Source: Candidatus Hermodarchaeota archaeon (GTDB lineage: Archaea > Asgardarchaeota > Thorarchaeia > Thorarchaeales > Thorarchaeaceae). Taken from it: a DNA stretch of 64,000 nucleotides. The translations under genes and the position numbers were made by a program. The stretch's first letter is position 1. Each line of letters starts with the position of its first letter. This document shows positions 13,628 to 29,972 of the stretch, one piece after another. The DNA lies in NCBI GenBank assembly GCA_048885865.1, contig JBHLLF010000002.1, forward strand, positions 1-64,000, written 5' to 3'. The notes below the pieces were generated by a model. It ran no database searches. It was not told the origin of the DNA and was given only the letters and a program-made list of their open reading frames with translations.

Positions 13628-14740
13628 TTATTCGTCGCCTCCCTTGCTGGCATCCGCCATGAGTTCGATAATGTCCTTAGTTTTGTTATCACTTGCAAGT
13701 AGCTGTTCACGACATGATGGACACGCTGTTACTACAACAGTATCCCTTAGCTTCTCCTTAGCTGCTCTGGCTTGAATGATAATGTCGCTTAGTCCGGGAT
13801 CCGTCATCCTTAGGAGTCCTCCACCCCCACAGCAACTGGCTTCCATTTCACGATAATCCACACCGAGTTTCTTCAAGAGTGACCTTGGCTCGGTCTTAAT
13901 GCCAAGAATCCTATGAAGCTCGCAAGGATCGTGATATGCCAGCTCCTCTGTTTGCTTGTACTTGGGTGTGGTCTCCATCTTCTGGTCAAAGAACTGGGTA
14001 TGGTGAAGCGCCTCTACATTCTCAAGATTGTGATGCTCTCTCAGCTGGATTAGACAGCCTGGGCAACATGTCACCACTCTTTTTGCCTGCGCATCTCTAA
14101 TCACTGTCCTGTTATGCTCTCGGAGATCCTCAGCACCTTTCTCATCGCCCATCAGATAGAGAGGATGACCGCAACAATTCTCCTCAGCTCCCATGATTAG
14201 GTAATCTTCACCAATATCCTCTAGCATCATAAATAGAGACCTTACTACATCCATCTGACTTCCACGAAATGACATGAGGCAGCCAAGGAAGACCATTGTG
14301 TCAGCAGTCTTGCCCTTCTCATAGAGGCGATCTGCAAGTTTTGGGATGTCGTCTTCCAGCTCATCAAGCCAGTAAATAGCTCTGTCCTCGGGGTCCAGCC
14401 CATAAATATTCGCTACATTGGCCAGCGCATCCTTCAGAGCGTCCAGATACTCAAATTCCTCGGGTGCGGTTTCGATAGCCTTTGCCCTCTGTTCATGCCA
14501 AACTCGAAGCAGATCCACGTCGGACGAGCAAATCTCTGAGCATCTGCCACACATGCTGCATTGAAAAAGCAATTGCCTGAACTCCTTTGCGAGTTCTGGG
14601 TCATCCTCGATTTGGTCCATTATCTGCAACATGTACGCCTTTCCACGAGGTGAGTACTGCTCTTCACCTACTGCATCAAATAGGGGGCAGAACTTGACGC
14701 ATGATCCACACCTTACACATTTGTCGTATGATGATGACAT
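13628..14740 (-). CDS. Fe-S protein with 4Fe-4S dicluster and two CCG domains (GlcF/HdrD-like)
   Basis: CVRCGSCVKFCP, CSMCGRCSEIC, ENCCG, TCCPGC, YHDPC, CCGGGG, TACPSC. Confidence 0.88.
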   Translation of the reverse strand: MSSSYDKCVRCGSCVKFCPLFDAVGEEQYSPRGKAYMLQIMDQIEDDPELAKEFRQLLFQCSMCGRCSEICSSDVDLLRVWHEQRAKAIETAPEEFEYLDALKDALANVANIYGLDPEDRAIYWLDELEDDIPKLADRLYEKGKTADTMVFLGCLMSFRGSQMDVVRSLFMMLEDIGEDYLIMGAEENCCGHPLYLMGDEKGAEDLREHNRTVIRDAQAKRVVTCCPGCLIQLREHHNLENVEALHHTQFFDQKMETTPKYKQTEELAYHDPCELHRILGIKTEPRSLLKKLGVDYREMEASCCGGGGLLRMTDPGLSDIIIQARAAKEKLRDTVVVTACPSCREQLLASDNKTKDIIELMADASKGGDE

Positions 14741-14838
14741 TGTAGATTCTCCGTGACTGAGAGCTATAGCATCGCCGAGCTGCAGCAATTTTAGTCTTGC
14801 TGATAGCTGCTTTTTTTGACTAGAAAAAGAGAGGGATT

Positions 14839-14857
14839 GCGGCGGATTATCCGCCGC
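14839..14857 (-). terminator. Hairpin plus T-rich tract downstream of malic enzyme
   Basis: GCGGCGGA-TTA-TCCGCCGC perfect 8-bp stem about 10 nt past the stop, followed on the minus strand by CTCTCTTTTTCT. Confidence 0.6.
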
Positions 14858-14866
14858 TTGAAATTC

Positions 14867-25959: not shown

Positions 25960-26946
25960 GTGCTTCGTGTCCCAGATATTATCGCGCTGATGACGGATCA
26001 TGAACTCAAATCCTATGGGTATCTTAAGGACAATCTAGAGCTTCTTTTCAGTGATGCTTTGGAGATTCCCAGGATATCAATAGAACGAACTCTAGGTGGT
26101 ATGTCCAATATCAACCTGCTTGCTCATTGCGAACCAGAACACCTAGTTCTACGGATACCATCGCTATTCATCGAGTATCCCTCTAATCATTACGCGCAAG
26201 AGTTTCTTGTATTATATGAAGCAGCTCAAAGGGGATTGAGTCCTCGTCCAATGACATATGGGACTCTTGCTAATAAAAATCAAACCCCCTTCTTGGTTTA
26301 CTATTACGAACCTGGGATAGTTCATTCAGGCCTGAGTTCTATTAGTATTGATGAGTTTCGTAGACTGGAACAAAGTCTAGACCTACTTCAGAATCTTGAT
26401 GTTGCTGGAGCACCAGCCTATTCGTCCGCTGTGGAATACCTATATTATCTTCACTCGCGAGTTGACTCAGTCCTACCCGATTCAGAGATTCAATCAGAAA
26501 GAATGAAACGTGCTAGGTTTTCGGTGGATACGCTTCATGCGTCACTGGAACTCATATTGGATGGTGTGCGTTGGCCTACGGGTGCCATGCACAGTGACCT
26601 TCGCCCAAGTAATATCATCTTTCAAGAAGATCATGTTTTGCTTCTGGATTGGAGTGAGTTCTGCACGGGATTTGCCAACTATGACATAGCGTATTTTCTC
26701 TCCGAGCCAGTAGAGCCGTTCTCATCTGATATACTGGTGAGTTCAGGGTCGAGAGATGTGACTGAAATACCCAAATTACAGAGTCTTGCTTTATTCTCCT
26801 GCATCTCCTGGACATTTGAACGATTGGTTCGTTGTGAACTCGGACAGGTACCTTCTACCCTGTCTAATGATGACATGGTGGAATCTATGGAGACCTACAT
26901 CAGGATGCAGATGGACCAGCTAATTGAGATATTGAACCAACTTTAG
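25960..26946 (+). CDS. Aminoglycoside phosphotransferase / choline kinase-family protein
   Basis: GGMSNIN, LVLRIP, HSDLRPSNI (Brenner motif), LLDWSE, YDIA. Confidence 0.8.
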   Translation: MLRVPDIIALMTDHELKSYGYLKDNLELLFSDALEIPRISIERTLGGMSNINLLAHCEPEHLVLRIPSLFIEYPSNHYAQEFLVLYEAAQRGLSPRPMTYGTLANKNQTPFLVYYYEPGIVHSGLSSISIDEFRRLEQSLDLLQNLDVAGAPAYSSAVEYLYYLHSRVDSVLPDSEIQSERMKRARFSVDTLHASLELILDGVRWPTGAMHSDLRPSNIIFQEDHVLLLDWSEFCTGFANYDIAYFLSEPVEPFSSDILVSSGSRDVTEIPKLQSLALFSCISWTFERLVRCELGQVPSTLSNDDMVESMETYIRMQMDQLIEILNQL

Positions 26947-28646
26947 AAAAAGCTCTCTGGTGCCCTTTCCCAGATATCCTCATCAATTGATGCAATCACA
27001 TATTGATAGCCCTGCTCGGTCAAGAAGAGCTGACGTTTTGCAGCGAAGTCCATATCTCGAGTGTCCTTTGTGATTAGAGAGTAGAACCGTGCAAAGCTAC
27101 CATCCGTCTTTGGTCTTAGAATTCTACCAAGTCGCTGTGCTTCTTCCTGTCTGGACCCAAACGTGCCCGACACCTGAATAGCTACATTGGCATCGGGAAG
27201 GTCGAGTGCGAAGTTTGCGACTTTCGAAACTACGAGGATTTTTTGCTCGCCCTCTCTAAATGCCGTATATAATCTCTGACGTTCTGAGTTGGGAGTCTTA
27301 CCGGTTATTAGAGGTGCCTCTATCTCCTCTGCAATAATCTTGAGCTGGTCAAGATACATCCCGATAATCAGAACATTGTCATCTTCATGATAGGCTGTTA
27401 GTGTTTTGATGAGTTTGTTCTTCTCTGGGTTCTCTGCGGCAATTCTGTACTTCTTTCTGTCTTCAGCGAGGGCATATTTCCTTCTCATTGGGTCCGGCAA
27501 CTCAAGGCGTATCTCATAGCATATAGCTGTGGCAATCCATCCCTGGTCTTCAAGTAGCTTCCAAGGCATGTCATATCGCTTTGGTCCAATCAGACTGAAT
27601 ACATCTTCCTCCCGCCCATCCTCGCGTACAAGAGTGGCGGTTAGTCCGAGACGTCGAGTCGCTTGTATTGTTGCAGTCGCTCTAAATACCGGAGCGGGGA
27701 GAAGGTGGACCTCGTCATATATGATTAGCCCCCAATTCCTCGCCTCGAAGATGCCGAAGTGTTCAAAGGAGTCATCTCGAGATTTCCGCCACGTGAGTAT
27801 CTGATAGGTAGCAACGGTAATAGGACGCACCTCTTTCAGGTCCCCAGTGTACTCACCTATGTCCTGAGGCTTTAGGTCAGTCTTGTCAAGAAGCTCTTGA
27901 ATCCATTGTCGGACTGCAATCACGTTTGGACAGAGTATGAGAGTTGATGTCTGTAGTTTCTCAATGGCGCCCATCCCAACCATTGTCTTGCCCGCTCCAC
28001 AAGGCAATACGACAACTCCCGAGCCTCCCTTGACGCCCCCACCAGCATAGAATGTATCCACGGCGTCGCTCTGGTATCTTCGTAGTCCCCACCTTTTCCC
28101 TTCAAGTGTCACATCCCGCATTCTTAATGCGAGAGCATCTCCTTCCACATAGCCAGCGAGGTCTTCTACTGGATGGCCTAGCTCAAGCAACGCATGCTTC
28201 AGAAATCCCCTTTGACCTTCAATAACTAGAAATGACCTCTCATCGATTCGCTCTTCAAGATACTCCTCAAGTTTTGTCTGGGCACCAATCTCTTCAGCTA
28301 GGTCTTCTTCGGCGCATTCCAAGATGAGATCCGGGCCCTCCATGTACAATGTGATCTGACCATATCTGGACATGTACTCAATGATTTCGCGCTTGATGTT
28401 GTCAGGAATGGGATACTTGGCATATGTTTCCAAGGCATCAATAACTTCTCTAGCAGTCATGCCCATTGCAGCAGAGTTCCAGAGGCTCAACGGAGTAACT
28501 CGGTATGTGTGTACATATTCTGGACTCTTCACTAGCTCAGCGAATCTAGCCAGCGAATCCCGGGCTTCTTCATACTTGGGATTGTCCACTTCAAGAAGGA
28601 CTGACTTGTCTGACTGCACTATCAGCGGATTCATTGGATTGGGCAT
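26943..28646 (-). CDS. xpb: XPB/Rad25 SF2 helicase with N-terminal Helicase_C_3 domain
   Basis: PLIVQSDKSVLLEV N-terminal domain, LPCGAGKT, DEVH, GLTATLVRED (RED motif), QRLGRILRPK. Confidence 0.95.
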   Translation of the reverse strand: MPNPMNPLIVQSDKSVLLEVDNPKYEEARDSLARFAELVKSPEYVHTYRVTPLSLWNSAAMGMTAREVIDALETYAKYPIPDNIKREIIEYMSRYGQITLYMEGPDLILECAEEDLAEEIGAQTKLEEYLEERIDERSFLVIEGQRGFLKHALLELGHPVEDLAGYVEGDALALRMRDVTLEGKRWGLRRYQSDAVDTFYAGGGVKGGSGVVVLPCGAGKTMVGMGAIEKLQTSTLILCPNVIAVRQWIQELLDKTDLKPQDIGEYTGDLKEVRPITVATYQILTWRKSRDDSFEHFGIFEARNWGLIIYDEVHLLPAPVFRATATIQATRRLGLTATLVREDGREEDVFSLIGPKRYDMPWKLLEDQGWIATAICYEIRLELPDPMRRKYALAEDRKKYRIAAENPEKNKLIKTLTAYHEDDNVLIIGMYLDQLKIIAEEIEAPLITGKTPNSERQRLYTAFREGEQKILVVSKVANFALDLPDANVAIQVSGTFGSRQEEAQRLGRILRPKTDGSFARFYSLITKDTRDMDFAAKRQLFLTEQGYQYVIASIDEDIWERAPESFF

Positions 28647-28797
28647 TCGTATTCCTCATACTACATTAGATGGGTTACATTCCTTAACCTGGAATCATAG
28701 ATTCGTGATTTGGAAACCGGAGGACGGCGAGATGACTTTAAGATAAATCCTTCCGTCTGGCATCAAATTTCCTTCGCGTCACGCTGACCACAAATCC

Positions 28798-29142
28798 TTT
28801 ATAGCTAATTTGAAGGGTTGAGCCTGCATGACTCGAAAGGAGGTGCAGTTCCATATGATGGCGATAAGATTGGTTAATGCAGTGGACACTTGCACCCGCG
28901 ATAAGGGTGTCAATTAGAACGACATCCGCTGTTTCTCTGTGCTAGCATTCATTTCACGCATCGTGTATGTACTGCTCATTGATGCGCATTGCGTGGGGCT
29001 GGCTGTCTGCTGATATTGGTTTGATGTGCTTAGAATGTAGGATGCGTACCAGCTCAGTCAATGAGAGTGAAATCAGAAGTTGAAAAATAACACGAAACAA
29101 CGAATGCTGGGCTCACATTTCAGTAGGTGTAAATCGTGAGCC
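28798..29142 (+). promoter_or_regulatory. Putative promoter and long structured 5' leader of the RIO kinase operon
   Basis: TTTATA at 28798-28803, four nested complementary helices across 28942-29110, and a hairpin at 29110-29142 covering the GTG start. Confidence 0.55.
28855..28917 (+). CDS. Putative 20-aa leader peptide (uORF) MMAIRLVNAVDTCTRDKGVN
   Basis: Strong GGAGGTG SD at 28839-28845, 9 nt before ATG 28855, TAG at 28915-28917. In-frame alternative ATG at 28828. Confidence 0.4.
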   Translation: MMAIRLVNAVDTCTRDKGVN

Positions 29143-29972
29143 GAGTCGAAAAGCATAATCCTCTGAAGAGTGGCGTGATCGCTCAGAAGCGTGCTGCACT
29201 GAAGGGAGAAACCTCTGGTAGAATGACAGAGATCAAAGAGCTGACCTTTGACACGGTCCGTGAAGATGCGATACAATTTGGTCTTGCGACTGATGTCATC
29301 TACCAGATTAACGCTGGAAAGGAAGCCTCAATCTTCCTTGCTCAATGGAGAGGACACCATATAATCCTGAAAGCCTACCGGCTGTGGCAATCCTCTCACA
29401 AGATGTCAAAGAAGAAGGGATACATTGCTCAGGGCACAGGCAAGAGGACATACTTCATCCTTGGAATGATGGAGGATTTAGCTGTCATGGAGTACGACTA
29501 TCTCATGAACTGCTTCAAAGCAGGGGTTCACGTTCCCACTCCCATTGGTCGAGTTGGAAACTACCTCACAATGAGATTCATCGGCGATGGGACTCAGCCT
29601 GCGCCTCAACTCAAAGATGTCCATCTTGAGAATCCTGAAAGAGTCCTAGATCAGATACTGGATGACTATCTCCTAATGTATAGCAAAGCCCACTATGTCC
29701 ACGGAGACCTCAGCAAGTACAATATACTCTGGTGGCAAGACCGCCCTTGGATTATCGATGTTCCGCAAGCGGTCATCGTCAACAAGTGGTCTGATATGCT
29801 GAGGATTGAGAAGTTGCTCATGAGGGATATTGAGAATGTTCTAAGTCATTTCGAGAGCTACGACATTCATCGCGATCCAGATCATATCCTCGAAGTCTTC
29901 CTGTCAGAGTATGTTCCTGAGAATTTGAAGAACTACAGAGAACTCAAGTCTGAAGGTATTGAGTTGTTGTAG
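29136..29972 (+). CDS. RIO1-family atypical Ser/Thr kinase
   Basis: GKEASIF, ILKAYR, GVHVPTP, MRFIG, PAPQL, HGDLSKYNIL, IIDVPQA. Confidence 0.92.
   Translation: MSRVEKHNPLKSGVIAQKRAALKGETSGRMTEIKELTFDTVREDAIQFGLATDVIYQINAGKEASIFLAQWRGHHIILKAYRLWQSSHKMSKKKGYIAQGTGKRTYFILGMMEDLAVMEYDYLMNCFKAGVHVPTPIGRVGNYLTMRFIGDGTQPAPQLKDVHLENPERVLDQILDDYLLMYSKAHYVHGDLSKYNILWWQDRPWIIDVPQAVIVNKWSDMLRIEKLLMRDIENVLSHFESYDIHRDPDHILEVFLSEYVPENLKNYRELKSEGIELL

Follow-up and report, generated by a model that had tools for sequence, protein, structure and literature searches.

What occupies the long gap ahead of a pair of RIO1-like kinase genes in an Asgard archaeal genome, and does it act on the translation of these genes? 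The gap (positions 28647-29135, 489 nt) separates divergently oriented genes in the window, i.e. the whole 64,000-nt stretch analysed here (positions 1 to 64,000 of contig JBHLLF010000002.1, assembly GCA_048885865.1, Candidatus Hermodarchaeota archaeon). In a genus-level alignment of 14 sequences, the gap was found to be conserved as strongly as its coding flanks. It was also compared with 58 orthologous leaders located upstream of RIO-like genes in ~17 genera of one Asgard family, and the architecture described below is common to all of them. The gap appears to hold a conserved ~310-nt messenger RNA (mRNA) 5' leader of the kinase pair, and the region is probably best explained as a translation-coupled leader that acts in cis to control translation of the kinase. 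This archaeal cis-regulatory leader is conserved and apparently undescribed. An initial annotation of the same DNA had proposed an undescribed cis-acting leader ahead of the kinase, and that proposal is supported; every sequence element listed there is present at the position it was assigned.

The first part of the leader contains a short upstream open reading frame (uORF1), which is preceded by a strong Shine-Dalgarno (SD) sequence and overlapped by two helices:

28839-28845, plus strand: SD1, GGAGGTG, ribosome-binding site of uORF1.
28855-28917, plus strand: uORF1, ATG start, 20 codons, stop TAG at 28915-17.
28842-28896, plus strand: helix P1, GGTGCAG (28842-48) with CTTGCACC (28889-96; 28890-96 pairing).
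28905-28927, plus strand: hairpin P2, GGGTGTC (28905-11) with GACATCC (28921-27), the uORF1 stop in the loop.

SD1 is invariant in 58 of 58 leaders and is complementary to the 16S 3' tail ATCACCTCCT of one same-genus and one same-family genome; the assembly containing the window is without a 16S gene. The uORF1 ATG is located 9-11 nt downstream of SD1 in all 58 leaders, and the frame is open in every one, with a length of 18-26 codons and TAG, TAA or TGA as the stop. The ATG and the anti-SD arm of P1 are separated by 11 different distances, and in 54 of the 58 leaders the distance is 1 mod 3, indicating that insertions and deletions have preserved the uORF1 frame, and this is the strongest argument from sequence that uORF1 is likely to be translated. 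The SD and the 20-aa uORF picked out by the initial annotation are therefore upheld across the family. Among same-genus sequences, the 5' codons of uORF1 change non-synonymously, and its 3' half shows no change, not even at synonymous positions, which points to a constraint on the RNA.

These observations bear on the suggestion that uORF1, a second frame described below (uORF2) or both encode functional micropeptides (e.g. partners or substrates of the kinases) at the start of a polycistronic operon, the helices serving mRNA stability. Both frames are preserved, uORF2 reaches 55-63 codons in some genera, and the uORF1 peptides of many genera have in common a hydrophobic N-terminal half and, at the C-terminus, an x-C-T-[DN]-V-E-like motif. 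However, the recurring Cys-Thr corresponds to the anti-SD arm TGCACC, a different reading frame gives S-A-Q/H from this arm in one genus, and the pattern of changes within the genus is the one given above, non-synonymous in the N-terminal codons and fixed at synonymous sites in the 3' half. The uORF2 products are also of low complexity and unrelated in sequence type between subgroups, shrinking to 15 codons or none. A micropeptide function is thus considered quite improbable.

P1 masks the 3' half of SD1 and encloses the uORF1 start codon in its loop. It is paired in 95.7% of cells of the 58-leader alignment and was present in both the minimum-energy and the centroid folds, and its extension covaries between genera (CAGACA/TGTCTG, CAGATTG/CAATCTG and CAGTT/AACTG). 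Helices were compared with controls of 168-500 genes from the same genome, and the mean energy of the duplex between the SD and downstream sequence was -15.9 kcal/mol for the leaders versus -9.0 +/- 3.0 kcal/mol for 168 SD-led genes. P2 is a hairpin of 5-7 bp with a stem sequence that is wholly different between genera, and all 7 pairs vary on both sides across the 58 leaders. A hairpin loop with a stem of at least 4 bp contains the uORF1 stop codon in 38 leaders (66%) versus 90 of 500 control stops (18%), and this position is kept where the type of stop codon changes. Single-sequence folding of the P1-P2 module gave a z score of -1.36.

Downstream of P2, a conserved linker leads into a larger domain closed by a third helix, P3:

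28928-28954, plus strand: pyrimidine-rich linker, consensus CGCTGCTTCTgTGTGC, then TTCATTCATTTC; a conserved block in alignments A1 and A3.
28955-29048, plus strand: P3 domain, P3 28955-62 with 29041-48 and P3b 28964-68 with 29035-39.

Across the 58 leaders, 11 of the 12 pairs in P3 and P3b vary on both sides (e.g. AU:30/GC:26 and GC:42/AU:11), and compensatory arms include ACGCATC/GATGCGT, ACGCGTC/GACGCGT, ACACGTC/GACGTGT and TACACGCC/GGCGTGTA. When P1, P2 and P3 were scored together on the 58-leader alignment, 81.6% of cells were paired and 22 of 27 pairs varied on both sides. The covariation score was 0.298, compared with 0.189 +/- 0.008 for 500 shuffles, none of which reached the observed value, and with 0.075-0.10 when partner positions were slid. 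On this alignment evidence, P1, P2 and P3 are the conserved helices of the leader. A candidate inner helix, P4 (28984-90 with 29023-29; AGCACA/TGTGCT), is paired in 67% of cells with mainly one-sided changes, and so it is weakly supported as an inner helix.

The inner P3 domain is of near-constant size (~77 nt), mostly 72-83 nt in the 58 leaders (exceptions 70, 104 and 105), and it carries the conserved motifs cATTGAaGCACA, TCTGCTTtT and TGTGCTA. A constant size, closure by a strongly covarying helix and conserved motifs in regions predicted to be unpaired, among them a motif pair CTGCTTCT...TGTGC that occurs twice, are features expected if the domain is a binding platform, i.e. a protein operator or a small-molecule aptamer, whose occupancy decides the translation of uORF2 and the kinase. 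The ligand could be the RIO-like kinase itself or an ArsR-like winged helix-turn-helix (wHTH) protein that is encoded in other genera. Single-sequence folding of the P3 domain gave a z score of +1.02, so its conservation is not explained by thermodynamics alone. However, no Rfam riboswitch or protein-binding leader matched, there was no similarity to 16S ribosomal RNA (rRNA) hinting at mimicry of a RIO site, the leader sharing only words of 7-10 nt with same-genus 16S rRNA, and a platform would leave both the frame keeping of uORF1 and the stop codon in the P2 loop unexplained. Binding at P3 is a serious, non-exclusive alternative that could coexist with translational coupling, and we rate it as possible rather than probable. 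A C/D-box or kink-turn (k-turn) reading of the P3 domain was dropped on inspection by eye, as no D box is conserved.

Thorarchaeota 16S genes were found to contain short insertions near the 3' end (L157, from a same-genus genome, 3095-3160; L156, 1400-1520, minus strand). One insertion, of ~30 nt, lies between GGATGG and ATCAATCACCTCCT, and in the other genome GTCACATTTCGTGAC-type hairpins occur repeatedly. Small introns or expansion segments beside the anti-SD are possible explanations.

The initial annotation had drawn the structure differently. In that model, four nested helices (H1-H4, 28942-29110) and a final hairpin bury the kinase start, and stalling of a ribosome on the 20-codon uORF opens them. 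All of the arms are complementary as described, H2-H4 pair in 62% of family-alignment cells, somewhat more than in slid controls, H3 joins two conserved motifs, and the final hairpin is real. However, the 216-nt region gave a z score of -0.08 against dinucleotide shuffles (-1.42 on the minus strand) and the helices are unused in the minimum-energy fold. Covariation of H1-H4 in the 14 same-genus sequences was 0.100 versus 0.088 in shuffles, with H1-H3 mostly showing uncompensated breaks. The model also clashes with P3, which shows far stronger covariation: H2 occupies some of the same positions, and H3 and H4 would form pseudoknots with P3. Inverted 7-8-mers are about as frequent here as chance predicts: the 700-nt region contains 22 inverted-repeat pairs of at least 7 nt, 11 of them perfect, with ~15 perfect 7-mer matches expected by chance on an estimate. 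Finally, 25 nt separate the end of the uORF from the first helix, which would be out of reach for a stalled ribosome. The nested-helix model is therefore highly improbable; of the RNA structure first proposed, the final hairpin is retained and P1, P2 and P3 take the place of the nested helices. Single-sequence thermodynamics neither reveals nor refutes these conserved helices, the start hairpin alone being significant.

The 3' part of the leader contains a conserved block, the second frame and this hairpin:

29050-29079, plus strand: conserved block CAGCTCAGTCAATGAGAGTGAA, with SD-like GAGAGTG at 29063-69, 10 nt before the uORF2 start.
29080-29139, plus strand: uORF2, TTG start, 19 codons, stop TGA at 29137-39.
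29106-29146, plus strand: start-codon hairpin, GGCTCAC-ATTT (29110-20) with AAAT-c-GTGAGCC (29131-42).

The block CAGCTCAGTCAATGAGAGTGAA is highly conserved across genera, with a constant spacing of 9-10 nt between the SD-like sequence, a weak SD, and the start of uORF2. TTG, GTG and ATG are all valid start codons, and most species begin uORF2 with TTG, four with GTG and at least two with ATG. Despite sequence variation, uORF2 contains no insertions or deletions in the 14 same-genus sequences. It was located in 38 of the 58 leaders with a length of 15-63 codons across genera, and its end nearly always overlaps the kinase start or lies a few nt from it. In the window the TGA overlaps the kinase GTG at 29136 (GTGA), and elsewhere the junction is ATGA, TAATG, TAG-GTG or a gap of 1-3 nt. 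In one genus, the TTG at the uORF2 position is the kinase start itself. The start site and the end point are the only conserved features of uORF2. This frame, which was missed by the initial annotation, is the most direct route for translation to open the start hairpin.

The start hairpin has a predicted energy of -18.8 kcal/mol (z score -3.46; none of 200 shuffles equally stable). The kinase GTG lies within its 3' arm and SD3, AGGTG (29125-29), at the 3' edge of the apical loop, where in the minimum-energy fold only the A is unpaired. Four pairs vary on both sides within the genus, and analogous hairpins of unrelated sequence were found in at least seven other genera, each presenting the SD in its loop and pairing the start codon within its 3' arm. 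Windows folding at -18.8 kcal/mol or below were found at 41% of orthologous starts versus 3.75% of 400 SD-led genes of the same genome. The claim that a final hairpin at 29110-29142 buries the GTG is thus borne out by both stability and recurrence of the design.

A start at GTG 29136, giving kinase A (described below), is supported by the paralogue alignment, which begins at residue 4 of kinase A, by orthologue conservation, which begins at the same N-terminal point, by an in-frame TAA at 29130 ahead of the GTG, and by the overlap with the uORF2 stop. The downstream ATG at 29223, which the initial annotation had named as the start that would undo its case, was rejected as the residues preceding it are conserved in the paralogue and the orthologues. 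A further GTG (29127-29129), inside AGGTG, is invariant in the 14 same-genus sequences and shares the frame of the kinase. It must serve as the start in three species whose codon at the position of the window's start is CTG, and the TAA or TGA directly after it in the window's clade indicates that the start there has moved three codons downstream.

A conserved promoter lies upstream of SD1:

28783-28803, plus strand: promoter, GCTGACC-like motif at 28783-89, B recognition element (BRE)-like ACAAATCC and TATA box TTTATA at 28798-28803.

The promoter block GACCACAAATCCTTTATAG is near-invariant in the 14 same-genus loci. In two of these the upstream gene differs, and there conservation starts exactly at this block. 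A BRE/TATA-like box is found at a constant distance, ~41 nt upstream of SD1, in most of the 58 leaders, and across genera it is preceded by a GCTGACC-like motif. The conserved promoter and constant spacing suggest that transcription is likely to start near 28825-28830 and that the leader and the kinase are likely to be on one transcript. The TATA-like box at 28798 noted by the initial annotation is thereby confirmed as a conserved feature, and the block argues against a transcription start just before the RIO gene.

The GCTGACC / GTGACCG-like motif (28783-28789) abuts the BRE/TATA box in nearly all genera (see also L014, L017, L020, L111-L133 and L142), and may be a transcription factor operator that adds transcriptional control. 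A second conserved block in the gap, 28712-28760 (GGAAACCGaAGGACGGCGAGaTGACTTTAAGATAAATCCTTCCgTC), is found only where the XPB-type helicase gene is the neighbour. It includes a minus-strand TATA-like sequence, TTTATCTTAAA, and may form a hairpin; the block probably represents the promoter and 5' leader of the helicase gene:

26943-28646, minus strand: XPB-type helicase gene, upstream neighbour of the leader gap.

How might these parts act together? In the translation-coupled leader that we favour, ribosomes on uORF2 would unwind the start hairpin and then reinitiate at the kinase start by termination-reinitiation coupling. The way in which the P3 domain and the linker fold would set the frequency of initiation at uORF2, and this fold would depend in turn on ribosomes that load on SD1 before, or despite, formation of P1 and then translate through P1 and P2. 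Kinase output would then report the translational state of the cell, such as how many initiation-competent small subunits are available or how elongation and termination proceed on uORF1. A more specific form, in which the leader is a sensor of initiation-competent small subunits that feeds back on a RIO-type kinase, is unlikely. Here two partners would compete for SD1: the 3' tail of mature 16S rRNA and the intramolecular anti-SD, which emerges ~50 nt later in transcription. Whether a subunit wins would determine how the P3 domain folds, hence initiation at uORF2 and the kinase. In a more radical, shunt-like variant, ribosomes terminating at the stop codon in P2 would cross the P3 base to reach the TTG, which lies at a spatial distance of 70 nt.

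Several points weigh against translational coupling. The transcription start and the translation of both uORFs are read from patterns of conservation. Mutually exclusive helices, the hallmark of an attenuator, were sought in the leader but not shown, and when the P3 inner domain or the linker was paired with the region of uORF2 initiation, the duplexes were no stronger than in shuffles (mean z scores -0.22 and 0.00) and inconsistent in position. As competing helices were not identified, the route from uORF1 to uORF2 is the weak link. The P3 domain gave no signal in single-sequence thermodynamics, and RNAalifold on a MAFFT alignment of the inner domain recovered P3 alone, with P4 weak. One subgroup, in which uORF2 is long, lacks the start hairpin. 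Across the family, the uORF1 peptide is not conserved, leaving a mechanism of peptide-specific stalling unsupported, and no conserved stalling motif was found among the uORF1 peptides.

Transcription attenuation of the trp/his/leu type was rejected, as no terminator-like sites were found, none of the 58 uORF1 peptides contains codon runs of the kind seen in amino-acid-operon attenuators, and T-runs are not conserved in the window's genus.

The genes that the leader precedes were characterised as follows:

29136-29972, plus strand: RIO1-like kinase A, 278 aa, GTG start (Pfam RIO1, 3.2e-36).
29990-30802, plus strand: RIO1-like kinase B, 270 aa, TTG start (Pfam RIO1, 8.9e-34).

Both kinases contain the RIO domain (PF01163) and share 59% identity. 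Kinase B starts 17 nt after the end of kinase A and has its own SD, GGAGGTG, at 29978-84. The genome contains four RIO-domain genes. With the Rio1 equivalog model NF041310 (cut-off 480 bits), the window kinases scored 95 bits, so are not canonical Rio1 by this model, whereas a RIO gene on contig C9 scored 232 bits. These scores indicate that kinases A and B belong to a divergent, apparently Thorarchaeota-specific family of RIO1-like paralogues. The tie to small-subunit maturation that the initial annotation had drawn from the RIO assignment is weakened accordingly: the RIO domain is present, but the gene taken as the canonical Rio1 is elsewhere in the genome. At E-values up to 1e-60, members of the divergent family were detected in 69 of the 85 other genomes that represent one family, and the one sister-family genome that was searched yielded none.

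Where a genus has only one RIO-like gene, the stop codon of the kinase is overlapped by a gene whose product is ~95 aa long:

L015, 2319-2609; L016, 1195-1494; L017, 2319-2609; L020, 1193-1498: ~95-aa wHTH genes.

The product is an ArsR/SmtB-like winged-helix protein (NCBIfam HTH_metalloreg, 7e-07), and in the window's genus its position is occupied by the second kinase paralogue. A gene convergent to the kinase pair (31240-31656, minus strand) encodes a 138-aa protein with the C-terminus ...VSRVVLRKVD and no match in Pfam or NCBIfam, and this gene neighbours the RIO-like locus in several genera. The gap had been described as the longest intergenic region in the window, which is incorrect; on a crude map of open reading frames (ORFs) it is the second-longest, as the ORF-free stretch 13711-14866 (1156 nt) is longer. 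The latter is the window's longest stretch without an ORF of at least 90 codons and contains no Rfam match.

A covariance model, R1, was built from the P3 domain and the downstream block. R1 matched 60 of 85 genomes of the family, with one copy in each, directly upstream of the RIO-like gene. It matched none of the 124 other Asgard genomes searched, a count to be read with the fact that R1 misses divergent forms. A single copy of the leader was found in this genome by nhmmer, and neither second copies nor a regulon were detected by nhmmer in this genome or by the covariance model in each genome. A second Asgard family (L158-L176) has a RIO-like gene with 38% identity to that in the window, and in 15 of 16 loci GGAGGTG, an ATG and a uORF of 25-28 codons lie ~215 nt upstream of it. 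This uORF contains a different anti-SD, CACCTCC, spelled by A-T-S/A-A-S codons. The second-family leader is related but shorter, continuing with a T-rich tract and a GAGAGTG...TTG block, and is R1-negative.

In searches of Rfam with the leader region at E-values up to 10, the best matches had E-values of 5.8-6.6, far below gathering scores, and no family matched the whole 64-kb window at gathering scores. No tRNA or transfer-messenger RNA (tmRNA) was found, and a full-text literature search returned no description of the leader.

Among known systems, the bacterial erm/cat attenuators (ermCL-ermC, cat86 and cmlA) are similar in having a leader ORF of ~20 codons with a strong SD. In the window leader, too, the start region of the regulated gene lies in a hairpin, and control is predicted to be translational and in cis. 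A leader ORF with its own ribosome-binding site is present upstream of the gene in all 58 leaders, and the regulated start codon is placed within a significant and recurrent stem. However, the window leader is archaeal, its leader SD is masked from inside its own ORF, the stop codon is in a hairpin loop, and a structured domain of ~100 nt and a second, coupled uORF precede the gene. In addition, neither an alternative-helix pair nor a stalling motif was found.

Termination-reinitiation at overlapping stop and start codons has been shown in Haloferax volcanii and Escherichia coli (PMC6728339). As in that process, uORF2 and the kinase are co-directional with stop and start overlapping or a few nt apart, and the downstream start lies in a structure that an upstream ribosome would open. 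However, the upstream partner in the window is a short, poorly conserved bridging frame, not a gene for a complex subunit. An intergenic small ORF at Salmonella mgtA (PMC8092293) is likewise a small upstream frame proposed to unmask a downstream initiation region, but it is from another domain of life and has no relation in sequence or structure, and the window leader has two uORFs in series. Like Rfam cis-regulatory families, the leader is a covarying 5' element with one copy per genome, associated with one gene family; unlike them, it matches no model and contains frames that are probably translated.

For bacteria and eukaryotes, regulation by uORFs and structured leaders is well established in the literature, but to our knowledge it is hardly documented in archaea, and a literature search found no such case in Asgard archaea, the closest prokaryotic relatives of eukaryotes. 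The window leader is a clean and comparatively well-supported archaeal case. It offers a concrete RNA with which initiation, termination and reinitiation in Asgard archaea can be studied, and the shunt-like variant, if true, would mean long-range reinitiation in a close relative of eukaryotes. If the kinases act on ribosomes, the leader may form a feedback loop that links translation capacity with ribosome maturation.

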